DNA from: Pseudomonas aeruginosa
Lineage (GTDB): Bacteria > Pseudomonadota > Gammaproteobacteria > Pseudomonadales > Pseudomonadaceae
Assembly: GCF_001457615.1 (NCBI RefSeq)
Contig: NZ_LN831024.1
Location: 3,480,001 to 3,512,000 of the forward strand
DNA length: 32,000 nucleotides
Reading direction: 5' to 3'
Part shown: piece by piece, positions 1 through 9,615 of the stretch
How positions within the stretch are numbered: the stretch's first letter is position 1
How the letters are laid out: each line of letters starts with the position of its first letter
Notes under the pieces: model-generated
The model's input: only the letters and a program-made list of their open reading frames with translations
What the model was told of the DNA's origin: nothing
The model's database searches: none
Program-made: the position numbers and the translations under genes

Positions 1-1272
1 GCCGAAATCGCGACTGCCGAGGCCGACTATCGCACCGTCGGGCAGCTCTGCCGGCGGCTTGCCGGCCTGCAACGCGCCCAGCAGGGTGCCGATGGACAAC
101 CCGCTGTCGGCGAAGCCAGCGCCGCCGGCGACATGCCCGCTACGCAGCGCCCATTGCACCCCGAGGGCGTCGCCGATCTCGCCGGACAGCTCGACGATCG
201 CCGCCTCCACCAGCAGTTGCGCGCGCGGCACGTCGAGCTGGCGGACGATGTCCTCGAGCAGGCCGACATCCTCCGGGTCGGCGAGGATCACCAGGGCATT
301 CAGCGATTCGTCGGCGCGCACCAGCAGGCCGCGCTTGCCGCTTCCCCGGCCATCCTGGCCTCGCTCGCCGTGCAGCGATTCGCCGATCTCCCCGAGGGTG
401 GCGGCAAGGGTCTTGGCGTCGCCATGGCGCAGGCGGATCACCCGGCTGTTCGCCGACCGCGACGAGGGGACGTCGAGCGACTGCGCCAGCCGCAGCAAGC
501 GCGCTCGCGCCTGCGGCGGACCGAGCAGGACCAGGCGGTTGCTGCGGCTGTCGGCAAGGACCTGGACGGTGGCGGCGCTCTTCCCGGCGGCCGGGGTGAC
601 GCTGCGATCGAGCACCTCGGCGATTTCCGCGACCCAGGCATGGCGCATGTCGTAGATGCTGTAGTCATGTTCGCCGGCCCGGTCGAGGCTGCGCACGATC
701 GCCTCGATGCGCTCGATGTTGGCGCGGCGGTCGCTGACGATCAGCGCGTTGGCCGACGGTACGGCGGCCAGATGGCCATGGGCCGGGACCAGCGGCCGGA
801 TCATCGGGATCAGTTCCGCCACCGAGGTCTGCTGCGCCTGGACCACCCGCGTCTCCAGGCTGCCCGGCCCATCGCGGACGGTCTTCTGCGCGGCGTCCTG
901 GCGTGCCTCCATGTTCGGCACGATACGCGCCTGGTCGCCCTGCGGCAGCACCGCGTAGCCGTGGGTGGCGAGCACCGAAAGGAATAGTTGGTAGACCTCC
1001 GCCAGGCTGAGCCGCGCCTGGGATACCACCGTGACCCGCCCCTTCACCCGCGGATCGACGACGAAGGTCTGGCCGCTGATGCTCGATACCTGCTCGATGA
1101 AGTCGCCGATCTCGGCATCCTTCATGTTGATCGTCCACTGCTCTTCCTCTTGCGCGGCGGCAGTCTCGGCAGGTGCCGGATGGACCGGCGGCGCCAGGCC
1201 GAGGACGGCCAGCGACAGGACCAGGAACAGCGGAGACAGGCGCTGGGCGGAACGGGTACTACAACGTGGCAT
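1..1272 (-). CDS. xqhA: Type II secretion secretin (GspD family), N-terminal 424 codons; the gene runs off the left window edge
   Basis: Absent from the ORF track because it has no in-window stop. Manual minus-strand translation from ATG 1272 gives MPRCSTRSAQRLSPLFLVLSLAVLGLAPP..., a signal peptide. I spot-checked nt 1-240 in the same frame and found no stops; it reads ...RAQLLVEAAIVELSGEIGDALGVQWAL...GKPPAELPDGAIVGLGSRDFG, a typical start of a secretin C-domain. No competing ORF is listed in this frame. The start overlaps the upstream GspC-like stop by 14 nt. The symbol is recalled from the P. aeruginosa xphA-xqhA locus. Confidence 0.85.
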   Translation of the reverse strand, partial: MPRCSTRSAQRLSPLFLVLSLAVLGLAPPVHPAPAETAAAQEEEQWTINMKDAEIGDFIEQVSSISGQTFVVDPRVKGRVTVVSQARLSLAEVYQLFLSVLATHGYAVLPQGDQARIVPNMEARQDAAQKTVRDGPGSLETRVVQAQQTSVAELIPMIRPLVPAHGHLAAVPSANALIVSDRRANIERIEAIVRSLDRAGEHDYSIYDMRHAWVAEIAEVLDRSVTPAAGKSAATVQVLADSRSNRLVLLGPPQARARLLRLAQSLDVPSSRSANSRVIRLRHGDAKTLAATLGEIGESLHGERGQDGRGSGKRGLLVRADESLNALVILADPEDVGLLEDIVRQLDVPRAQLLVEAAIVELSGEIGDALGVQWALRSGHVAGGAGFADSGLSIGTLLGALQAGKPPAELPDGAIVGLGSRDFG

Positions 1273-1750
1273 GGGTGGTTTCTGCCCCTTCGGCTTTGGG
1301 GAAATACAGACGTTCTTCATAACCCTGGTCGCGCAGCACCACATGGTCGCGATGAACCGCCAGCAGCACGGTGCCGGGGCGCACTTCGGCGCCCGGCAGG
1401 AAGCGCTGCGAGCGCCCGGCCACCGCGATCAGCGCCGCCGAGCGGTCCTCGCGACGCGCCAGGAAGCAGGCCAGCAGGCGCAATTGCAGACGCTCGCCCG
1501 CCGTCGCGCCGCGCGGCGACGGAGCGCCACCGAACAAGCCGGCTAACGCCGCGCGCGGGGCCGCTGAAGGGTTGGCTGGCGGCGCCGGGGCCGCTGCGGC
1601 GGGCAATTCCGCCAGCTCGCGGCGCAGCGAGCGCGTCTGGCTGGCCAGGCTGGCGCTGAGCAACGCCAGCAGCAGCACGCAAAGCACAGCGGGCGCATGC
1701 CCGGCCAGGCTGCGCAGGGAAACGAAAGACGATGGAAGGTGACGCGACAT
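1259..1750 (-). CDS. xphA: GspC-like type II secretion inner-membrane component
   Basis: The ORF 1259..1816 (-) has alternative ATGs at 1816, 1786 and 1750. I chose 1750 (MSRHLPSSFVSLRSLAGHAPAVLCVLLLALLSASLA) because it gives a short cytoplasmic N-terminus followed by one TM helix, the GspC topology. The C-terminal part (RLQLRLLACF...AALIAVAGRSQRFLPGAEVRPGTVLLAVHRDHVVLRDQGYEERLYF) resembles the GspC HR domain. It sits directly upstream of, and overlaps, a secretin gene. No start has a clear SD, so the start is uncertain. Confidence 0.75.
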   Translation of the reverse strand: MSRHLPSSFVSLRSLAGHAPAVLCVLLLALLSASLASQTRSLRRELAELPAAAAPAPPANPSAAPRAALAGLFGGAPSPRGATAGERLQLRLLACFLARREDRSAALIAVAGRSQRFLPGAEVRPGTVLLAVHRDHVVLRDQGYEERLYFPKAEGAETTHATL

Positions 1751-1927
1751 GCAGCAGGCGGATTCCGGCAAACGGGCGCGCTGCATCGACGCGGCTCGCC
1801 CAGGGGCGGCGAGCATAAGGGATGGGGCTGCGGCCTACGGCCGCGAAAGGGCAAAACTGTTAAGGCTGCCCGCTTTGATCCTTCGTGGCGGGAACTGGCC
1901 CACAAAACGCCAGGCGCGGGAAAGGCC

Positions 1928-2137
1928 TCAGCGCTTGCCCATCGAACGACGGGTACCGCGCGGCGCCATGCCGGGACGCTGGCCCTTGTCGTGGATCTTC
2001 CGCTGCGGATAGAGCTGGGCCTGGTTCTTCTTCGCCAGGGCGGCCTTCAGCAACGCGCTGGCGTCGCTCGGCGCGGCCTGGGCCGGAGCGTCGTCGGAGG
2101 AAAGGGCCTGGGGAAGAGCGTCGGGAGCGGAAGCCAT
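1928..2137 (-). CDS. Hypothetical small protein (69 aa) with an Ala/Pro/Ser/Asp-rich N-terminus and a strongly basic C-terminus
   Basis: MASAPDALPQALSSDDAPAQAAPSDASALLKAALAKKNQAQLYPQRKIHDKGQRPGMAPRGTRRSMGKR. I counted codon third positions by hand: 58 of 69 are G/C, none are A, and 11 are T, a typical Pseudomonas coding signature. A perfect TATAAT on the same strand (2173-2178) lies about 36 nt upstream of the ATG. I recognise no family. Confidence 0.5.
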   Translation of the reverse strand: MASAPDALPQALSSDDAPAQAAPSDASALLKAALAKKNQAQLYPQRKIHDKGQRPGMAPRGTRRSMGKR

Positions 2138-2172
2138 GGCGTATCCGGATCGGGGGAAATCGTGGGGACGCG

Positions 2173-2178
2173 ATTATA
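2173..2178 (-). promoter_or_regulatory. Candidate sigma-70 -10 hexamer for the small ORF
   Basis: The minus strand reads a perfect TATAAT, with 35 nt between it and ATG 2137. The -35 region is weak (TGCCGG) and overlaps a tandem octamer repeat, CCGGACAG x2 (2183-2198). Confidence 0.3.
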
Positions 2179-2195
2179 CATGGCTGTCCGGCTGT

Positions 2196-2212
2196 CCGGC
2201 AGCACCTGCCGG
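2196..2212 (-). terminator. GC-rich hairpin 15 nt downstream of the helicase stop
   Basis: CCGGCAG-CAC-CTGCCGG forms a perfect 7-bp stem with a 3-nt loop. There is no U-tract. Confidence 0.3.
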
Positions 2213-2226
2213 CGTATCGCCACGGG

Positions 2227-4509
2227 TCAACGCAGTTGCCACCAGCCCGGCAGCAACCGGCGCACCTTGGCCTGGGCGAAACGGTCGTCGATCAGGTGCA
2301 CCACGCCGCGATCGCTGCGGCTGCGGATCACCCTCCCGGCGGCCTGGACCACCTTCTGCAGTCCCGGATACAGGTAGGTGTAGTCGTAGCCGTCACCGAA
2401 CAGGCGCTGCATGCGCAGGCGGATCTGCTCGTTCACCGGATTCACCTGGGGCAACCCGAGGGTGGCGATGAAGGCGCCGATCAGGCGCTCGCCAGGCAGG
2501 TCGATGCCTTCGCCGAAGGCACCGCCGAGCACGGCGAAGCCGATGCCCTCGCCGCCCGCGACGAAGCGCTCGAGGAAGACCCGGCGCTCCGCCTCGTCCA
2601 TCCGTGGCGTCTGGCTCCAGCATGGCACCCACGGGTATGCCTGGCGGAAGACGTCCAGCGCCTGCTGCAAGTAATCGAAGCTGCTGAAGAAGGCCAGGTA
2701 GTTGCCCGGCCGCTGGCGAAACTGCTCGCCGAGAATCGCTGCGATGGGCGCCAGGGATGCCTGGCGCTGCGCATAGCGCGTGGAAACCCGACGCTGTATG
2801 TGCACCTCCAGTTGCTCGGCGCTGAATGGCGAGTCCACTTCCAGCCAGGGCGTGCCCGCCGGCAGGCCGAGCAGGTCGGCGTAATAGTCGCGCGGCCCGA
2901 GGGTAGCGGAGAACAGCACGGTGGAGCGGCTGGCGGCGAAGCGCTCGGCGAGAAACGCCGCCGGCACCACGTTGCGCAGGCACAGCCGGGCCAGGCTGCG
3001 GCCGTTGCGGCCTGGGCGCTTCTCGATGTCGAACAGCGAATGCTCGCCGAACAGTTCGGCGAGACGGCCGAACTGCAGGATCGCGAAGTAGAACTCCTGC
3101 AACGCCGGCTCCAGCGCCTGCGGTTGCTCGGCGAGCAGGTCGTTGATCGCCGCCACCGCGTTCTGCAAGGCCAGGAGCAGCTTCTGCGGAGGCTCGTCGT
3201 AGGCCTGGTAGTCGTCCGCCTGGGTCTTGGCCAGTTCGTTCCAGGCACGCTGGATGCGCTCCAGCGGTTTCCTCAGGGCCTCCGGGGCGGTTTTGCGCAC
3301 ACCGAGGAAATCGCCCTGGTCGAGTTCGGCGGAATACATCCGCCGGCCGCGCTCCACCAGGTTGTGCGCCTCGTCCACCAGTACCGCCACCCGCCACTGG
3401 TTGACCTGGGCCAGGCCATGGAGCATGGCGCCGAGATCGAAGTAGTAGTTGTAGTCGCCCACCGCCAGGTCGCACCAGCGCGCCAGTTCCTGGCCCAGGT
3501 AGTAGGGACAGACCCGGTGCGCCAGCGCCACCTCGCGCAACCGCGCCTGGTCCAGCCAGCGCGCCTCCACGGCGGCGGCGCGGGCCGCCGGCAGGCGTTC
3601 GTAGAAGCCCTGGGCCAGGGGACAGGACTCGCCGTGGCAGGCCTTGTCCGGGTGCTCGCAGGCCTTGTCCCGCGCCACCAGTTCCAGCACCCGCACCGGC
3701 AGTCCGCCGGTCTCCCCTTCCAGGCTACGCAGGGCATGCAGCGCGAGGGCCCGGCCCGGGGTCTTGGCGGCCAGGAAGAACAGCCGGTCCAGGCGCTGCC
3801 CGGGCATCGCCTTGAGTTGCGGGAACAGCGTGCCGATGGTCTTGCCGATCCCGGTCGGCGCCTGGGCCATCAGGCAACAACCGGCGGAGGCGGCCTTGTA
3901 CACCGCCTCCGCCAGTTGCCGCTGGCCGTGGCGGAATTCGGCGTGGGGAAAGCGTAACGCGGCCAGTTCGCGGTCGCGCCGCTGGCGGTGCGCCAGTTCC
4001 TGCTCGGCCCAGGCGAGAAACGCCTGGCACTGGCTCTCGAAGAACAGCCGCAGCTCGTCGGCCCGCACCCGCTCGACGAAGCGGGTCTCCTTCTGGCTGC
4101 CGACCTCCAGGTAGACCAGCGCCAGTTCGACTTCCTCCAGCTTCCGTTCGGCGCAGAGCAGCCAGCCGTAGACCCTGGCCTGGGCCCAGTGCAGGTGCCG
4201 GTGGTTGGCCGGTTGCAGGGCGAGGTCGCCGCGGTGGGTCTTGATTTCCTCCAGGCAGTTCGCCTGCGGATCGTACCCATCCGCCCGGCCGCGCACCTGC
4301 AAGTGACGGTAGCGTCCGTCCAGCGCCACTTCGCGCTGGTAGTGAGCGGGGCGCCGGGAGGTCACCAGGGTATGTCCGGCGATGCCTTCCAGGGCGCTGG
4401 GCGACGGGGTGAAGCGCAGGTCGAGGTCGCCGCGCTTGGCGCTGAACTCGCAAAGCGCGCGCACCGCCACCTGGTACAGCGCCTCGCCGCCCTGCTCAGT
4501 CATCGACAT
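2227..4509 (-). CDS. Fusion protein: N-terminal PD-(D/E)XK nuclease domain plus an XPD/Rad3/DinG-family Fe-S SF2 DNA helicase
   Basis: 760 aa. The N-terminus has RADGYD...CLEEIKT (D...ExK nuclease motif). It carries Walker A AQAPTGIGKT and a DEAH box VLVDEAHNL. A four-Cys cluster lies between them (ACEHPDKACHGESCPLAQGFY...VCPYY), as in XPD/DinG/FANCJ 4Fe-4S helicases. C-terminal helicase motifs are FGEGIDLPG and QAAGRVIRS. ATG 4509 (or 4503) overlaps the stop of the upstream nuclease gene. Confidence 0.9.
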   Translation of the reverse strand: MSMTEQGGEALYQVAVRALCEFSAKRGDLDLRFTPSPSALEGIAGHTLVTSRRPAHYQREVALDGRYRHLQVRGRADGYDPQANCLEEIKTHRGDLALQPANHRHLHWAQARVYGWLLCAERKLEEVELALVYLEVGSQKETRFVERVRADELRLFFESQCQAFLAWAEQELAHRQRRDRELAALRFPHAEFRHGQRQLAEAVYKAASAGCCLMAQAPTGIGKTIGTLFPQLKAMPGQRLDRLFFLAAKTPGRALALHALRSLEGETGGLPVRVLELVARDKACEHPDKACHGESCPLAQGFYERLPAARAAAVEARWLDQARLREVALAHRVCPYYLGQELARWCDLAVGDYNYYFDLGAMLHGLAQVNQWRVAVLVDEAHNLVERGRRMYSAELDQGDFLGVRKTAPEALRKPLERIQRAWNELAKTQADDYQAYDEPPQKLLLALQNAVAAINDLLAEQPQALEPALQEFYFAILQFGRLAELFGEHSLFDIEKRPGRNGRSLARLCLRNVVPAAFLAERFAASRSTVLFSATLGPRDYYADLLGLPAGTPWLEVDSPFSAEQLEVHIQRRVSTRYAQRQASLAPIAAILGEQFRQRPGNYLAFFSSFDYLQQALDVFRQAYPWVPCWSQTPRMDEAERRVFLERFVAGGEGIGFAVLGGAFGEGIDLPGERLIGAFIATLGLPQVNPVNEQIRLRMQRLFGDGYDYTYLYPGLQKVVQAAGRVIRSRSDRGVVHLIDDRFAQAKVRRLLPGWWQLR

Positions 4510-6175
4510 GCCAGCGCACGTAGCAGACCGCCACCGGCATCTCCCGCTCGCGGCAGAATTGCAGCCAGCGCAACTGGTTGTCCTGCAGGCGGTCGCCCGG
4601 TCCCTTGACCTCGACCATCCGGTAGCGCCGCTGCGCCGGCCAGAACTGGATCAGGTCCGGCAGGCCGGCGCGGTTGCCCGGGATATCCTCCAGCAGGCGT
4701 TCGAACCAGGCGCGCAGGTGGGCCGCCGGCAGGCAATCGAGCGCCTGTTCGAGCAGTTCCTCGCCAAGCAGTTCCCAGTAGACGAAGGGCGACTGCAGGC
4801 CGAACTTGTCGCGGTAGCGACAGCGGATCGCGTCGCGGTAGCTGCCGTCCTCCAGCCGTCCCAGGCAGGCCTCGAACAGGGCGGCGCGGCGCTGGCGGAA
4901 GTCGGCGCTGTGCAGGTCCGCCGGCGCGCTGTGGAAGGGATGGAAGAACGCCCCGGGAATGGCGGCGAAGATCGCCTCCCAGCAGAGCAGCCCGAACAGC
5001 GAATTGATCAGGCCGTTCTCGACGTAGTGCACCGCGCAACCGGGCTCTTCCAGGTGCTCGCGGACCGCCCACTCGACGCTACAGGGTTCGCTCGGGAACG
5101 CCAGGCACAGGTCCAGGCGGTCGATTTCCGGAGCCGCCGCCCGCGCCTGTCGCGGCAGGCCGAGCTTGCCTTGCAGGCGCGGCAGCAATCGGGCCAGGCC
5201 CTGGCGTTCGGCGTCGCTTTCCGGCGCACAGCTGGCCTCCCGCGCCAATGCATGGGCTTCGGCGAAGCGCTCGCCGCGTTCCAGGCTGCGAATCGCCCGC
5301 AGGCGCGCGCCGGGGTGGCTGGATTGGCGATAGAGCCGCTGGGCCAGGTCGAAATCCCGCTGCTTTTCGCAGTGCTGGGCGAACTGGAACAGCAGCTTGA
5401 CCCGCCGCCCTTCCAGCCAGGGATTGGCGTAGGGTTCGCCCGGCAGGCCGGCGAGCAGTTCCTCCAGCGGCTCGCCGAGGTCGAAGCGCTGGCGGCAGTC
5501 GAACAGGTGGAGATAGGCGTCGACGTCGGCGCGCAGGCGAAAGCCGCGGGAGTCGGCGGAAAACTCGACGCTTTCGTAACGATAGATACCCAGGTCGGCA
5601 AGGACGAACTCCGACCAGTCCTGCCACAGGTTGCCGAAATACATCAACCGCAAGCGGTCGCAGAGCGCCATGCAGCGCAACTCGTAGACCGGTTCGGCGA
5701 AGTCGGCCTGCCACTCGGCGAGCCGCCGCGCCTCGGGGAACAACGGCTGGAGCCGTTCCAGCAACGCATCCTTGCGCAGGTTCGCGCGCCCGAGATGGTC
5801 CCTGAACAGCTGCGACAATTCGTCCTTCCTCAGCAAGCCGAACAGTTGCGCCAGTTCCAGGGTCGGCTGCGCGTCCACCCAGCCCAATGCCAACAGCGGT
5901 TGCACGGCGGCGCGCGTGTCGCCGATCTCGGCATAGGCCAGCTTGCCTTCGCGGAACAGCGTGCCCTTGCGCATCACCATGCGCACCAGCAGGGCCTGGC
6001 TGGCCTCGGGCAGCTCGGCGAACGCGGCGATGAAGGCACGTTCCTGATCGTCGAGCAGATCGGCATAGCGTTCGCCGATCCAGGCGAGCACCGCGCGGAA
6101 GTTGTGCAGGTAGTAGAAGGGTTCGGGAAGCGCTGGGGAATTCACGGGAAGCGGAGCCTGGTACTGTTCATGCAT
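4496..6175 (-). CDS. FAN1-like structure-specific nuclease with a C-terminal VRR-NUC domain
   Basis: The track ORF is 574 aa. I prefer ATG 6175 (MHEQYQAPLP..., 559 aa). The C-terminus GLPDLIQFWPAQRRYRMVEVKGPGDRLQDNQLRWLQF contains the PD...E-x-K VRR-NUC catalytic core. The N-terminal and central regions look like SAP/TPR-like helical repeats, as in FAN1. I recall that the P. aeruginosa FAN1 homologue (PaFAN1) has been crystallised with 5' flap DNA. Confidence 0.9.
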   Translation of the reverse strand: MHEQYQAPLPVNSPALPEPFYYLHNFRAVLAWIGERYADLLDDQERAFIAAFAELPEASQALLVRMVMRKGTLFREGKLAYAEIGDTRAAVQPLLALGWVDAQPTLELAQLFGLLRKDELSQLFRDHLGRANLRKDALLERLQPLFPEARRLAEWQADFAEPVYELRCMALCDRLRLMYFGNLWQDWSEFVLADLGIYRYESVEFSADSRGFRLRADVDAYLHLFDCRQRFDLGEPLEELLAGLPGEPYANPWLEGRRVKLLFQFAQHCEKQRDFDLAQRLYRQSSHPGARLRAIRSLERGERFAEAHALAREASCAPESDAERQGLARLLPRLQGKLGLPRQARAAAPEIDRLDLCLAFPSEPCSVEWAVREHLEEPGCAVHYVENGLINSLFGLLCWEAIFAAIPGAFFHPFHSAPADLHSADFRQRRAALFEACLGRLEDGSYRDAIRCRYRDKFGLQSPFVYWELLGEELLEQALDCLPAAHLRAWFERLLEDIPGNRAGLPDLIQFWPAQRRYRMVEVKGPGDRLQDNQLRWLQFCREREMPVAVCYVRWHVDD

Positions 6176-6259
6176 ACAGATACCAGCGCCCCCACGGCTT
6201 GGCAATGCGCATCCGATCAAGCGTCGCCGGCCTGACGACGACTATCCAGGCACAAGGCG

Positions 6260-6287
6260 TTCGTTATATAAAAATATTAACAACGAA
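6260..6287. promoter_or_regulatory. AT-rich imperfect inverted repeat in the divergent FAN1-operon / TetR promoter region
   Basis: TTCGTTATATAAAAATATTAACAACGAA has outer arms TTCGTT/AACGAA. It is the only AT-rich stretch in the 133-nt intergenic region and is probably a -10/operator region. Confidence 0.35.
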
Positions 6288-6308
6288 ACCTGCCCCGTAT
6301 CGGTCCCG

Positions 6309-6959
6309 ATGAAGAAGATCCGCCAACGCAACCTGCAACTGATCCTCGACGCCGCCTGCGAAGTCTTCGCCGACTGCGGCTTCAGCGCCGCCCGGCTCAG
6401 CGACGTCGCCGAGCGCGCCGGCGTGGCGAAGGCCAACGTGCTCTATTACTACCGCTCCAAGGCGCAACTCTACGAGGCGGTGCTGGACAGCATCGTCGAG
6501 CCCCTGCTGGAAGCCTCCCGGCCATTCGCCGGCGACCAGCCGCCCGCCGAGGCGCTACGCGCCTACGTCGACAACAAGATGCGCATCGGCGCCGAGCGGC
6601 CGCACGCGGCCAGGGTCTTCTCCTGCGAGATCATGCGCGGCGCGCCGCGCATGCCGGCGCCGCTGCTGGAACGCCTCGACGCCCAGGCGGAACGCAACGC
6701 CGAGCGCATCCGCCAGTGGATCGACGAAGGCCTGCTGGCGCCGCTGGATCCGTACCACCTGCTGCTCAACCTGTGGGCGATGACCGAGTCCTATGCCCTT
6801 GGCGGCTGGCAACTGGCGCGCCTCACCGGCCAGGCCGGGCTGGACGCAAGCGACTACCGGCAGGCGGCGGAAAACATCGTCCGCCTGGTCTGCGCCGGCT
6901 GCCTGGCACTCCCCGGCGAGGCCGCGCCGCGTCGGCGTTTCCGCGCGCTGGCCGGCTGA
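6309..6959 (+). CDS. TetR/AcrR-family transcriptional regulator, RutR-like
   Basis: 216 aa. The N-terminal HTH is ILDAACEVFADCGFSAARLSDVAERAGVAKANVLYYYRSKAQLYEAVL. The C-terminal region (PHAARVFSCEIMRGAP...LAPLDPYHLLLNLWAMTESYA) aligns by eye with E. coli RutR. Confidence 0.9.
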   Translation: MKKIRQRNLQLILDAACEVFADCGFSAARLSDVAERAGVAKANVLYYYRSKAQLYEAVLDSIVEPLLEASRPFAGDQPPAEALRAYVDNKMRIGAERPHAARVFSCEIMRGAPRMPAPLLERLDAQAERNAERIRQWIDEGLLAPLDPYHLLLNLWAMTESYALGGWQLARLTGQAGLDASDYRQAAENIVRLVCAGCLALPGEAAPRRRFRALAG

Positions 6960-7022: not shown

Positions 7023-7829
<807 letters not shown>

Positions 7830-7841
7830 GGCGGGACCTGC

Positions 7842-8528
7842 ATGGCGTTGCCACTCGACAGTACGGACCTGGCGGCCATCTGGCTGACCATCGAGCTGGC
7901 TTCGCTCACCACCCTCCTCCTGCTGCTGATCGGCACGCCCATCGCCTGGTGGCTGGCGCGCACCCGCTCCTGGCTGAAGGGGCCGATCGGCGCGGTGGTG
8001 GCCCTGCCGCTGGTGCTGCCGCCGACGGTGATCGGCTTCTACCTGCTGGTCAGCATGGGTCCCAACGGTTTCATCGGCCAGCTCACCCAGAGCCTCGGTC
8101 TCGGCACCCTGCCCTTCACCTTCGCCGGCCTGGTGGTCGGCTCGGTGTTCTACTCGCTGCCCTTCGTCGTGCAACCGTTGCAGAACGCCTTCGAGGCGAT
8201 CGGCGAGAAACCGCTGGAGGCTGCCGCGACCCTGCGCGCGAGCCCCGTCGACCGTTTCTTCAGCGTGGTCCTGCCGCTGGCCCGGCCGGGTTTCGTCACC
8301 GCCGCGATCCTCGGCTTCGCCCATACCGTCGGCGAGTTCGGCGTGGTGCTGATGATCGGCGGCAACATCCCGGAGAAAACCCGCGTGGTCTCGGTGCAGA
8401 TATTCGATCACGTCGAAGCCATGGAATACGCCCAGGCCCACTGGCTGGCCGGCGGCATGGTGGCGTTCTCCTTCGTCGTCCTCCTCGCCCTCTATTCGGG
8501 CCGGCGCCGCCGGCCGGGCTGGGCCTGA
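7842..8528 (+). CDS. modB: Molybdate ABC transporter permease
   Basis: 228 aa polytopic membrane protein with the ABC permease EAA-loop region ([25 protein letters not shown]). It lies between modA and modC. Confidence 0.95.
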
Positions 8529-8529
8529 G

Positions 8530-9615
8530 ATGGACGGCCTGCGCCTGCGCTTCCGCCGCGCCTACCCCGGCTTCGAACTGGACATCGACCTGGCTCTTCC
8601 CGGTCGTGGCGTGACCGCTCTGTTCGGCCATTCAGGCTCCGGCAAGAGCACTTGCCTGCGCTGTATCGCCGGCCTGGAAAAGGCCGCCGAGGGCGAGGTG
8701 ACGATCAACGGCGAGACCTGGCAGGACAGCCGCCGCAACCTCTTCGTCGCGCCCCACCGGCGTGCCCTCGGCTACGTGTTCCAGGATGCCAACCTGTTCC
8801 GCCACCTGACGGTGCGGCGCAACCTGGCCTTCGGTCTCAAGCGCATCGCCGCCGCCGAACGCCGCGTCGAGCTGGAACAGGCCTGCGCCCTGCTGGGCAT
8901 CGAGCACCTGCTGGAACGCATGCCGGAACGCCTCTCCGGCGGCGAGCAGCAACGCGTCGGCATCGCCCGGGCCCTCCTCACCAGCCCGCGCCTGCTGCTG
9001 ATGGACGAGCCTCTGGCATCCCTCGACCTGAAGCGCAAGGGCGAGATCCTGCCCTATCTCGAGCGCCTGCACGAGGAACTGGACATCCCGGTGCTCTATG
9101 TCAGCCACTCGCCAGACGAAGTGGCGCGCCTGGCCGATCACCTGGTGCTGCTGGAGAACGGCAAGGTCCGCGCCAGCGGGCCGATCGGCGAAACCCTGGC
9201 GCGAGTCGACCTGCCGCTGGCGCTGGACGACGATGCCGGGGTGGTGATCGAGGGCACGGTCAGCGACCACGACCCGGCCTACGGCCTGCTGACCCTGGTC
9301 CTGCCCGGCAGTGCGCTGCAAATGCGCGTCGCCCACGCCCCGCTGGCCCCCGGCAAGCGCCTGCGCTTCAAGGTACAGGCGCGCGACGTCAGCCTGAACC
9401 TGCGCGACGACGCCCAGAGCAGCATCCTCAACCGCCTGCCGGTACGGGTCCTGGAATTGGTCGATACCGACACCGCGGCCCACGTTCTGGTGCGCCTGGA
9501 TGCCGGCGGCAATCCGCTGCTGGCGCGGATCACCCGTTACTCGCGGGACCAGTTGCAACTACGACCCGGCCAGCTGTTGTGGGCGCAGATCAAGTCGGTG
9601 GCGGTGCTCGCCTGA
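8530..9615 (+). CDS. modC: Molybdate ABC transporter ATPase with a C-terminal Mop/TOBE domain
   Basis: 361 aa with Walker [13 protein letters not shown] signature LSGGEQQRV and Walker B LLLMDEP. The C-terminal ~130 aa is TOBE-like. The ATG is 1 nt after the modB stop. Confidence 0.95.

Follow-up and report, generated by a model that had tools for sequence, protein, structure and literature searches.

A 32-kb window of the Pseudomonas aeruginosa genome (contig NZ_LN831024.1; the window is the whole stretch of DNA analyzed, with coordinates counted from its first letter) contains two overlapping genes, PA1865 and PA1866. These encode FAN1, a structure-specific nuclease, and an EndoDinG, in which a PD-(D/E)XK nuclease is fused to an iron-sulfur (Fe-S) helicase of the XPD/DinG type. 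Confidence that the two genes form an operon that is inherited as a unit is very high, and a predicted LexA box is conserved upstream of FAN1 in related loci. Our reading is that PA1865-PA1866 is probably an SOS-induced operon whose two enzymes act together on the same replication-blocking DNA intermediates. The crystallized P. aeruginosa FAN1 (PaFAN1) and the EndoDinG kind of protein are already known; what appears to be new is their conserved pairing and the LexA box. A FAN1–EndoDinG operon, or a LexA box on it, is not mentioned in the literature searched, although an earlier remark elsewhere is possible, and the pairing does not figure in Gwon 2014, Pennell 2014, Cheng 2025, Li 2026 or the paper on the phylogeny of TseV VRR-Nuc domains. 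The finding is not surprising in principle. The window has a G+C content of about 67%, and the flagged region holds two long minus-strand open reading frames (ORFs), 4496-6175 and 2227-4509. Its main features are:

4496..6175, minus strand: fan1 (PA1865), 559 amino acids (aa) from the ATG at 6175; a structure-specific 5' flap endo/exonuclease
2227..4509, minus strand: EndoDinG (PA1866), 760 aa, or 758 aa from the second ATG; an N-terminal PD-(D/E)XK nuclease and a 4Fe-4S XPD/DinG helicase
4496..4509, minus strand: overlap of the FAN1 stop and the EndoDinG start, ATGTCGATGACTGA, which suggests translational coupling
6164..6179, minus strand: predicted LexA (SOS) box, CTGTATGCATGAACAG, overlapping the annotated FAN1 ATG (6175-6173)

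The product of the first gene matches the crystallized FAN1 of P. aeruginosa (PDB 4R89, 4R8A and 5Y7G; structures of the protein also include 5Y7Q and 5Z6W) over residues 1-559 at E=0. Because this match runs from end to end, 4496-6175 is, as judged by sequence, PaFAN1 (PA1865), a protein with a solved structure. A sequence-only reading of this DNA had proposed a 559-aa FAN1-type VRR-NUC nuclease followed by a 760-aa protein, and both the gene calls and the nuclease assignment are borne out by the ORFs, by this match to 4R89 and by three Pfam domains:

5873-6118, minus strand: FAN1_HTH/NTD, residues 20-101 (Pfam, 1.4e-39)
5711-5860, minus strand: FANC_SAP, residues 106-155 (Pfam, 1e-14)
4511-4849, minus strand: VRR_NUC (PF08774), residues 443-555 (Pfam, 5.1e-41)

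The protein therefore has the features of the FAN1 family, namely a VRR-NUC domain at the C terminus with its D...E-x-K motif and N-terminal HTH/NTD, SAP and TPR regions, the TPR segment being inferred from the full-length match to the 4R89 chain. Residues D507, E522 and K524, to which a catalytic role has been assigned (PMC9635880), are invariant in an alignment of 26 FAN1 homologues (alignment A1). In vitro, PaFAN1 binds nicks or 5' flaps that carry a 5' phosphate, with a preference for 5' flaps, and incises a few nucleotides into the duplex beyond the junction; after incision it digests 5'-3' in steps of about 3 nucleotides (nt), past a lesion or crosslink, and it has been used as a model for the unhooking of interstrand crosslinks, an activity that is itself published for this protein (PMC4201288).

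The second gene product is, on its sequence, a member of the EndoDinG subgroup, which received its name in 2025, when the DinG-like proteins of bacteria were classified (Cheng 2025, PMC11981726). In a search of solved structures, residues 13-758 of PA1866 aligned with residues 6-748 of 9KQH at E=1.9e-109, and the alignment is contiguous through the Arch region. 9KQH is the DinG of Finegoldia magna (FmaDinG), the first EndoDinG to be characterized (Li et al. 2026, PMC13650095); its identity to PA1866 is only 32%. Much weaker matches were obtained to archaeal XPD (~1e-22), human XPD (~1e-9), FANCJ (7.5e-9) and Escherichia coli DinG (1.4e-7). A Pfam scan placed DEAD_2 and Helicase_C_2 above their cut-offs and HBB/Arch below threshold at 23.7 bits, and called nothing for the N-terminal nuclease domain. 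The key elements below were located with the help of an alignment of 22 homologues, 13 proteobacterial and 9 from Firmicutes (alignment A2):

3970..4473, minus strand: EndoDinG nuclease domain, about residues 13-180, with H46, E60, R75, D77, E88, K90, Q110 and Y114
3838..3861, minus strand: Walker A motif AQAPTGIGKT (A217-T224), invariant in A2
3508..3660, minus strand: Fe-S cysteines C284, C291, C296 and C334, invariant in A2
3364..3375, minus strand: DEAH box D379-E380-A381-H382, with D379, E380 and H382 invariant in A2

The fusion of a PD-(D/E)XK nuclease to a 4Fe-4S XPD/DinG helicase with a Walker A motif, four cysteines and a DEAH box had been recognized in the sequence-only reading, and all of these parts are present and conserved. 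Within the nuclease domain, H46, E60, G74-R75-A76-D77-G78, E88, K90, Q110 and Y114 are invariant in A2. Residues H46, E60, R75, D77, E88 and K90 align with H40, E54, R73, D75, E88 and K90 of FmaDinG, each of which abolishes nuclease activity when changed to alanine (PMC13650095). The nuclease domain of PA1866 looks active, since every residue shown to be essential by mutagenesis in the F. magna homologue is kept. FmaDinG combines a Mn2+-preferring endonuclease with a Mg2+/ATP-dependent 5'-3' helicase, its motor passes DNA into the N-terminal nuclease, and disruption of its Fe-S cluster destabilizes the protein (PMC13650095). A fusion of this kind is no longer uncharacterized, having been described in these two papers (PMC11981726, PMC13650095).

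Other identities for PA1866 were tried and set aside. As a canonical DinG it scores 71.8-73.3 bits against NCBIfam equivalog cut-offs of 598 and 789, and as YoaA it scores 90 bits against a cut-off of 680. The FANCJ match covers only residues 320-393, some 70 residues, and is far weaker than those to EndoDinG and archaeal XPD, so PA1866 is not a FANCJ orthologue; in its FANCJ part, the earlier label 'XPD/DinG/FANCJ-type' holds in no specific sense. Because PA1866 is an EndoDinG and not FANCJ, 'Fanconi-like' applies to the pair as an analogy at the level of the XPD family only. Csf4 models for CasDinG are weak (36.7 and 13.1 bits), and no CRISPR-like array is present in the window. The helicase core does match the PADLOC model 'typeIV_DinG, CAS-IV-A associated' at 4e-153 (509 bits), a generic model that covers the core only.

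At the junction of the two genes, GGCATGTCGATGACTGA (...GGC ATG TCG ATG ACT GA...), the FAN1 stop codon TGA (4496-4498) lies within the helicase ORF, as had been noticed from the sequence. The overlap is 14 nt if the helicase starts at the ATG at 4509 and 8 nt if it starts at the ATG at 4503, the latter giving the 758-aa form annotated in an NCBI P. aeruginosa assembly. This type of junction is widespread: in nearly all of 65 genome pairs, the start codons available to the helicase produce an overlap of 4, 13, 22 or 34 nt with the FAN1 stop, or lie no more than 2 nt from it. The distant pairs L174 and L176 also overlap by 4 nt; in one such pair a FAN1 of 39% identity is followed by an EndoDinG of 48%, and in another a FAN1 of 35% identity is followed by an N-terminal EndoDinG nuclease fragment of 31%. 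The layout suggests that PA1865 and PA1866 are translationally coupled. A scan of 1800-6700 for sigma-70 promoters and terminators returned 0 promoters and 1 intragenic terminator-like site. A G+C-rich hairpin, CCGGCAG-GTG-CTGCCGG, stands at 2196-2212, 15 nt past the EndoDinG stop; it lacks a T-run and was not called by the terminator scan, but it may serve the operon as a non-canonical terminator. A gene downstream (1259-1816, minus strand) encodes an unrelated protein resembling protein C of the type II secretion system (Pfam T2SSC); further on in the same direction, the P. aeruginosa locus L182 has a secretin gene.

The pairing was followed through a set of one genome per species (GTDB), which was searched with the FAN1 alignment as the query and from which the best 80 of at least 556 stretches were taken; EndoDinG beside FAN1 was detected by tblastn with PA1866. 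These loci come from Pseudomonas, Metapseudomonas, Stutzerimonas, Halomonas/Modicisalibacter, many Oxalobacteraceae and Eoetvoesiella. In 65 of the 79 assessable loci, FAN1 is followed at once by an EndoDinG of 59-73% identity on its own strand; 14 loci have none, and one further locus was too short to judge. Metagenome contigs gave an even more uniform result, with EndoDinG directly downstream in 76 of 77 assessable loci and about 600 nt away in the remaining one. This second scan had been seeded with distant FAN1s, but mostly loci of the PaFAN1 clade came back (47-61% identity), making it less diverse than intended. Taken together, 142 of the 156 assessable FAN1 loci are paired with EndoDinG, and co-conservation, the check proposed in the sequence-only reading, is thus confirmed across Pseudomonadaceae, Halomonadaceae, Burkholderiales (for example, Burkholderia multivorans) and metagenomes. 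The genes around the pair change from locus to locus. The flanking ORFs fall into 172 clusters, among which no conserved third partner was found; the flanks sampled, judged by sequence, include an RTX-type secreted protein, a PAS sensor kinase, a HemN-like protein, a chemoreceptor, phosphoglucomutase and a LytTR regulator. Distance matrices of FAN1 and EndoDinG from 126 full-length pairs are correlated (r=0.92, Mantel p=0.001), which fits inheritance as a unit. The families themselves are large: an exhaustive HMMER search (E<1e-30) gave 786 full-length (~550 aa) bacterial FAN1 representatives at 50% clustering, with identity to PaFAN1 down to 35%, and EndoDinG homologues number in the thousands in Pseudomonas, Halomonas and Burkholderiales. 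Within one large gamma/beta-proteobacterial clade the pairing is ancient and prevails, and either gene can persist by itself.

The box at 6164-6179 is the sole match in the window to CTGT-N8-ACAG, the canonical LexA operator of gamma- and beta-proteobacteria; about 0.22 would be expected in the window by chance. Among 157 homologous loci, 62 have a perfect CTGT-N8-ACAG between 10 and 80 nt upstream of where FAN1 is predicted to start, compared with 1.7% of controls (random segments from the same loci), and with one mismatch allowed the count rises to 127 of 157, compared with 9.1%. Many boxes in relatives are near-consensus, for instance CTGTATATAAATACAG, and in ten relatives examined the box precedes the predicted start by about 13-45 nt. 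The distant FAN1 loci had no LexA box upstream, and neither a Cheo nor a LexA box was found upstream of the Firmicutes EndoDinGs. From the position and conservation of the box, the pair is very likely to be under SOS (LexA) control. Published expression data point in the same direction. PA1865 and PA1866 are both induced 1 h after ultraviolet C (UV-C) irradiation, and PA1865 by ciprofloxacin as well; both genes also changed in a study sampled right after UV-C, at which point, of the three known damage regulons, LexA's was the only one whose genes had responded, and they were left without an assigned regulator and listed as 'not known' to be LexA-regulated (PMC12796719). Because a conserved box lies upstream and UV-C induction has been reported, we infer from the sequence that PA1865 and PA1866 are unrecognized LexA targets, which would be a simple explanation of the reported induction.

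With a conserved, overlapping operon that carries a LexA box, FAN1 and EndoDinG most likely cooperate, and it is probable that they act in one pathway. In the mechanism we propose, DNA damage would lead to LexA cleavage and to the induction of both proteins. At a blocked fork or gap, 5'-tailed single-stranded DNA would be the loading site of EndoDinG, which would open the duplex by ATP-driven 5'-3' translocation, while its N-terminal Mn2+-preferring endonuclease, as projected from the F. magna homologue and the conserved residues, would cut the displaced 3'-ended strand. Opening by the helicase would make or enlarge the flap or splayed structure needed by FAN1 and clear the opposite strand. 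FAN1 would then bind the nick or 5' flap, incise it and digest 5'-3' beyond the lesion or crosslink, so that an interstrand crosslink or bulky adduct would be flanked by incisions from the two nucleases, and the resulting gapped or ended intermediate would be passed to RecA-dependent repair. Which lesion is served is a more tentative matter; crosslinks as the specific one are possible, if somewhat doubtful. A stronger version, which we think unlikely, has an SOS-induced physical complex of FAN1 and EndoDinG unhooking interstrand (or DNA-protein or abasic-site) crosslinks at stalled forks without UvrABC. In such a complex, verifying and opening the lesion site would fall to the helicase and cutting the two strands to the two nucleases, and it would be a prokaryotic counterpart, possibly the evolutionary source, of the cooperation between FAN1 and an Fe-S helicase in eukaryotes.

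Several observations weigh against cooperation between the two enzymes, or against SOS control of their genes. No genetic or biochemical evidence of FAN1–EndoDinG cooperation or contact was found in any bacterium, nor did the literature searched yield an in vivo phenotype for mutants of fan1 or EndoDinG in bacteria. Shared phylogeny inflates the correlation of the distance matrices. FAN1 and FANCJ show no epistasis in chicken DT40 cells (PMC6550410). Studies of the SOS response in P. aeruginosa leave PA1865 and PA1866 off the LexA regulon list, and the LexA box overlaps the annotated FAN1 start codon, which is unusual unless that start is mis-annotated. Homologue starts bear on this last point. 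Relatives of PaFAN1 begin 6-8 residues before a conserved (D/E)DPFYYL(H/N)NF motif, and because these starts and the spacing of the box differ from the annotated ATG, the true start in P. aeruginosa may be the GTG at 6145-6143 (V11). If so, the first 10 residues of the crystallized construct (MHEQYQAPLP) might not be translated in vivo.

Further points of the same kind come from genes that stand alone. Fourteen Pseudomonas loci of the syringae/viridiflava/graminis group (L002, L004, L006, L008, L011, L012, L015, L016, L018, L019, L022, L024, L029 and L030) carry FAN1 with no helicase nearby, and distant FAN1s are solo in three sampled contigs and in Vibrio campbellii. On the other side, the Pseudomonas-like contig L181 carries EndoDinG without FAN1, and a VRR-NUC neighbor is absent from three Tissierellia EndoDinG loci (F. 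magna, Anaerococcus and Tissierella). A pairing that is universal, whether among bacterial FAN1s or among EndoDinGs, is refuted by these cases, and the module, called 'self-contained' at first, is likewise not obligatory. In 13 of the 14 solo Pseudomonas loci (not L012) the same divergent small ORF lies directly upstream of FAN1, and because it is shared in this way, most of these loci are explained by one loss or relocation event; at least four of them keep perfect LexA boxes. A look at the sequence alone likens the small ORF to nucleoside 2-deoxyribosyltransferases and, in most of these loci, the ORF beyond it to a LysR-type gene. The context of the solo EndoDinG in L181, GntR|...|phosphoglucomutase, is one in which related genomes carry FAN1, so the locus looks like a clean deletion of FAN1; a LexA box with one mismatch, CTGTACGCCCATCCAG, is kept 44 nt upstream of EndoDinG (L181, 2376-2470). 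Among three proteobacterial EndoDinGs sampled, two were paired (including the P. aeruginosa entry) and one was solo, and with FAN1-less EndoDinGs among those sampled, the EndoDinG family is broader than the pairing.

Some neighbors of the unpaired genes were recorded along the way. The EndoDinGs of Finegoldia, Anaerococcus and Tissierella are consistently followed by a gene of the tRNA/rRNA U5-methyltransferase family (L081 7586-8914, L082/L083 7333-8703, L084 7476-8831), which overlaps EndoDinG in Anaerococcus. Plasmid p172_1 of Bradyrhizobium sp. 172, a conjugative plasmid, encodes a 718-aa fusion of FAN1_HTH, VRR_NUC and RNase_T (L179 5989-8145; 27% identity), whose C-terminal RNase_T/DnaQ-type 3'-5' exonuclease supplies a second nuclease in cis that is not EndoDinG. 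Directly upstream of it lies a gene for an SRAP/YedK-like SOS-response-associated peptidase (L179 5164-5913), and an SRAP gene is also found, divergent, upstream of a solo FAN1 of 45% identity to PaFAN1 (L173 274-1200). This recurrent FAN1–SRAP neighborhood hints at a role in the processing of abasic sites or DNA-protein crosslinks.

The existence of solo genes makes independent function the main alternative, in which FAN1 and EndoDinG are SOS repair enzymes under joint regulation that use a common promoter for economy, with FAN1 acting on flaps or crosslinks and EndoDinG on something else, such as the clearance of R-loops, G-quadruplexes or replication-transcription conflicts, or in AddAB/Dna2-like resection. 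Such an arrangement would also suit the mechanism of EndoDinG, whose nuclease and helicase are coupled to each other and need no partner in vitro, and the varied stand-alone roles of canonical DinG-family proteins. However, overlapping adjacency in 142 of 156 loci, held through about 35-60% divergence and shifting flanks, exceeds the need of shared regulation, and the other genes of the SOS response lie dispersed over these genomes. We consider independent function unlikely. Cooperation between FAN1 and EndoDinG is nonetheless best seen as facultative and not as an obligate complex, because each gene also exists alone.

A second alternative concerns the regulator. The sequence-only reading suggested that a divergent gene beside FAN1, called RutR-like, may control the pair:

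6309..6959, plus strand: TetR gene (PA1864), TetR_N and TetR_C_3 domains, YcdC/RutR-like, below the RutR equivalog cut-off

The gene is divergent and its domains are YcdC/RutR-like, as described, but it does not reach the cut-off that would make it a RutR. Control of the pair by this protein in response to a metabolite would draw on the 133-nt intergenic region that it shares with FAN1, which holds an AT-rich inverted repeat, TTCGTT-N16-AACGAA. However, tblastn detected no homologue of the TetR gene at any of the 80 related genome loci, which removes it as a conserved regulator; the conserved element upstream of FAN1 is the LexA box, and the far side of the TetR gene is occupied by modABC-type transporter genes. 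Regulation by PA1864 is therefore very improbable. The inverted repeat (6235-6290) lies near the start of the TetR gene, went unreported by a repeat finder with a minimum length of 8, and may be the operator of PA1864 itself. The modABC-type molybdate transporter genes (7074-9615, plus strand), past the TetR gene, are unrelated to the operon.

Also very improbable is an anti-phage or anti-plasmid pair that degrades the replication intermediates of invading DNA: the match of the helicase core to the PADLOC type IV model, the frequency of VRR-NUC domains in mobile elements and toxins, and the patchy presence and variable flanks of the pair would favor it, but FAN1 has no PADLOC match, the helicase matches a generic DinG model only, the CasDinG scores are weak, the window was negative in a CRISPR array search, the sampled flanking ORFs are mutually unrelated (as judged from sequence, outside the defense-library scan), no phage homologues were found, and the LexA box and induction by UV and ciprofloxacin fit repair. 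A collection of 2.9 M viral contigs gave one full-length FAN1 match, L168 (IMGVR_UViG_3300011222_000038), with EndoDinG directly downstream (58%/68% identity, 64% G+C); this is probably host DNA in a contig labeled viral. Matches in a plasmid collection are megabase secondary replicons (chromids), except for the distant Bradyrhizobium variant. Between repair and foreign-DNA processing, the two roles that the sequence-only reading had left side by side, the conserved LexA box, the published induction and the lack of phage homologues favor repair.

An SOS-induced operon in which FAN1 and EndoDinG probably cooperate would matter for both proteins. PaFAN1 has so far served as a structural stand-in for human FAN1, with no report of its role in the bacterium in the literature searched. 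According to the EndoDinG papers, what the family does in vivo is not known, in part owing to the difficulty of genetic work in F. magna (PMC13650095, PMC11981726). The operon offers a candidate partner and a candidate regulator for both in a tractable organism, P. aeruginosa, where their in vivo roles are testable. If SOS control is true, two genes would join the P. aeruginosa SOS regulon, which would explain UV-induced genes left without a regulator in the 2026 study. The known range of EndoDinG is also widened well past the anaerobe-rich lineages described so far.

Comparison with known systems places the two proteins more precisely. Among helicases, the DinG and YoaA of the E. coli type are likewise XPD-family Fe-S helicases and are LexA-regulated, as is predicted for PA1866; PA1866 differs in its extra N-terminal nuclease and in scores far below the equivalog cut-offs, and P. 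aeruginosa has a separate LexA-regulated DinG, PA1045. CasDinG (Csf4) of type IV CRISPR-Cas systems differs in context, the neighbors in the window being TetR, modABC and type II secretion genes. ExoDinG carries a DnaQ-type 3'-5' exonuclease in place of the PD-(D/E)XK nuclease. Dna2 and AddAB likewise feed DNA by an ATP-driven motor to a PD-(D/E)XK nuclease of the Cas4/Dna2/AddA/MGME1 type, whereas the motor of EndoDinG is of the XPD type of superfamily 2 and its Fe-S cluster sits in the helicase and not in the nuclease. PA1866 is closest to FmaDinG, with which it shares the PD-(D/E)XK residues, the Fe-S domain with its four cysteines, the Walker A motif and the DEAH box. The published EndoDinGs belong to Bdellovibrionales, Eubacteriales, Tissierellales and similar orders (PMC11981726, PMC13650095) and their hosts are mostly strict or facultative anaerobes, whereas the host of PA1866 is an aerobic/facultative proteobacterium. 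The PA1866 clade also has an operon with FAN1 and a LexA box, and the Firmicutes EndoDinGs have neither, the U5-methyltransferase gene adjoining them instead.

Likeness to the eukaryotic proteins is greatest for FAN1. The window protein has the same order of NTD/HTH, SAP, TPR and VRR-NUC as human FAN1 and the same D-E-K triad, with an E-value of about 5e-28 over the VRR-NUC region. Unlike eukaryotic FAN1, PaFAN1 lacks a UBZ domain (PMC9635880), and none was detected in it by Pfam. A module of the eukaryotic Fanconi anemia pathway was set aside as an identity for the pair on account of this missing domain. To our knowledge, bacteria have no FANCD2/FANCI pathway to recruit FAN1, and the operon partner, along with SOS control, may provide recruitment or cooperation instead. 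The nearest eukaryotic parallel to the pair is that of FANCJ/BRIP1 and FAN1, in which an XPD-family 4Fe-4S 5'-3' helicase is likewise functionally paired with FAN1; FANCJ has no nuclease domain, unlike EndoDinG, and it matches PA1866 less well than archaeal XPD does. Arabidopsis FAN1 and the Fe-S helicase FANCJB behave as epistatic, in one pathway, with regard to mitomycin C sensitivity (PMC6550410). With Arabidopsis and DT40 cells giving opposite answers, the question is unsettled in eukaryotes, and the PA1865-PA1866 operon would serve as a simple model, in a bacterium, of the cooperation of FAN1 with an XPD-family Fe-S helicase.

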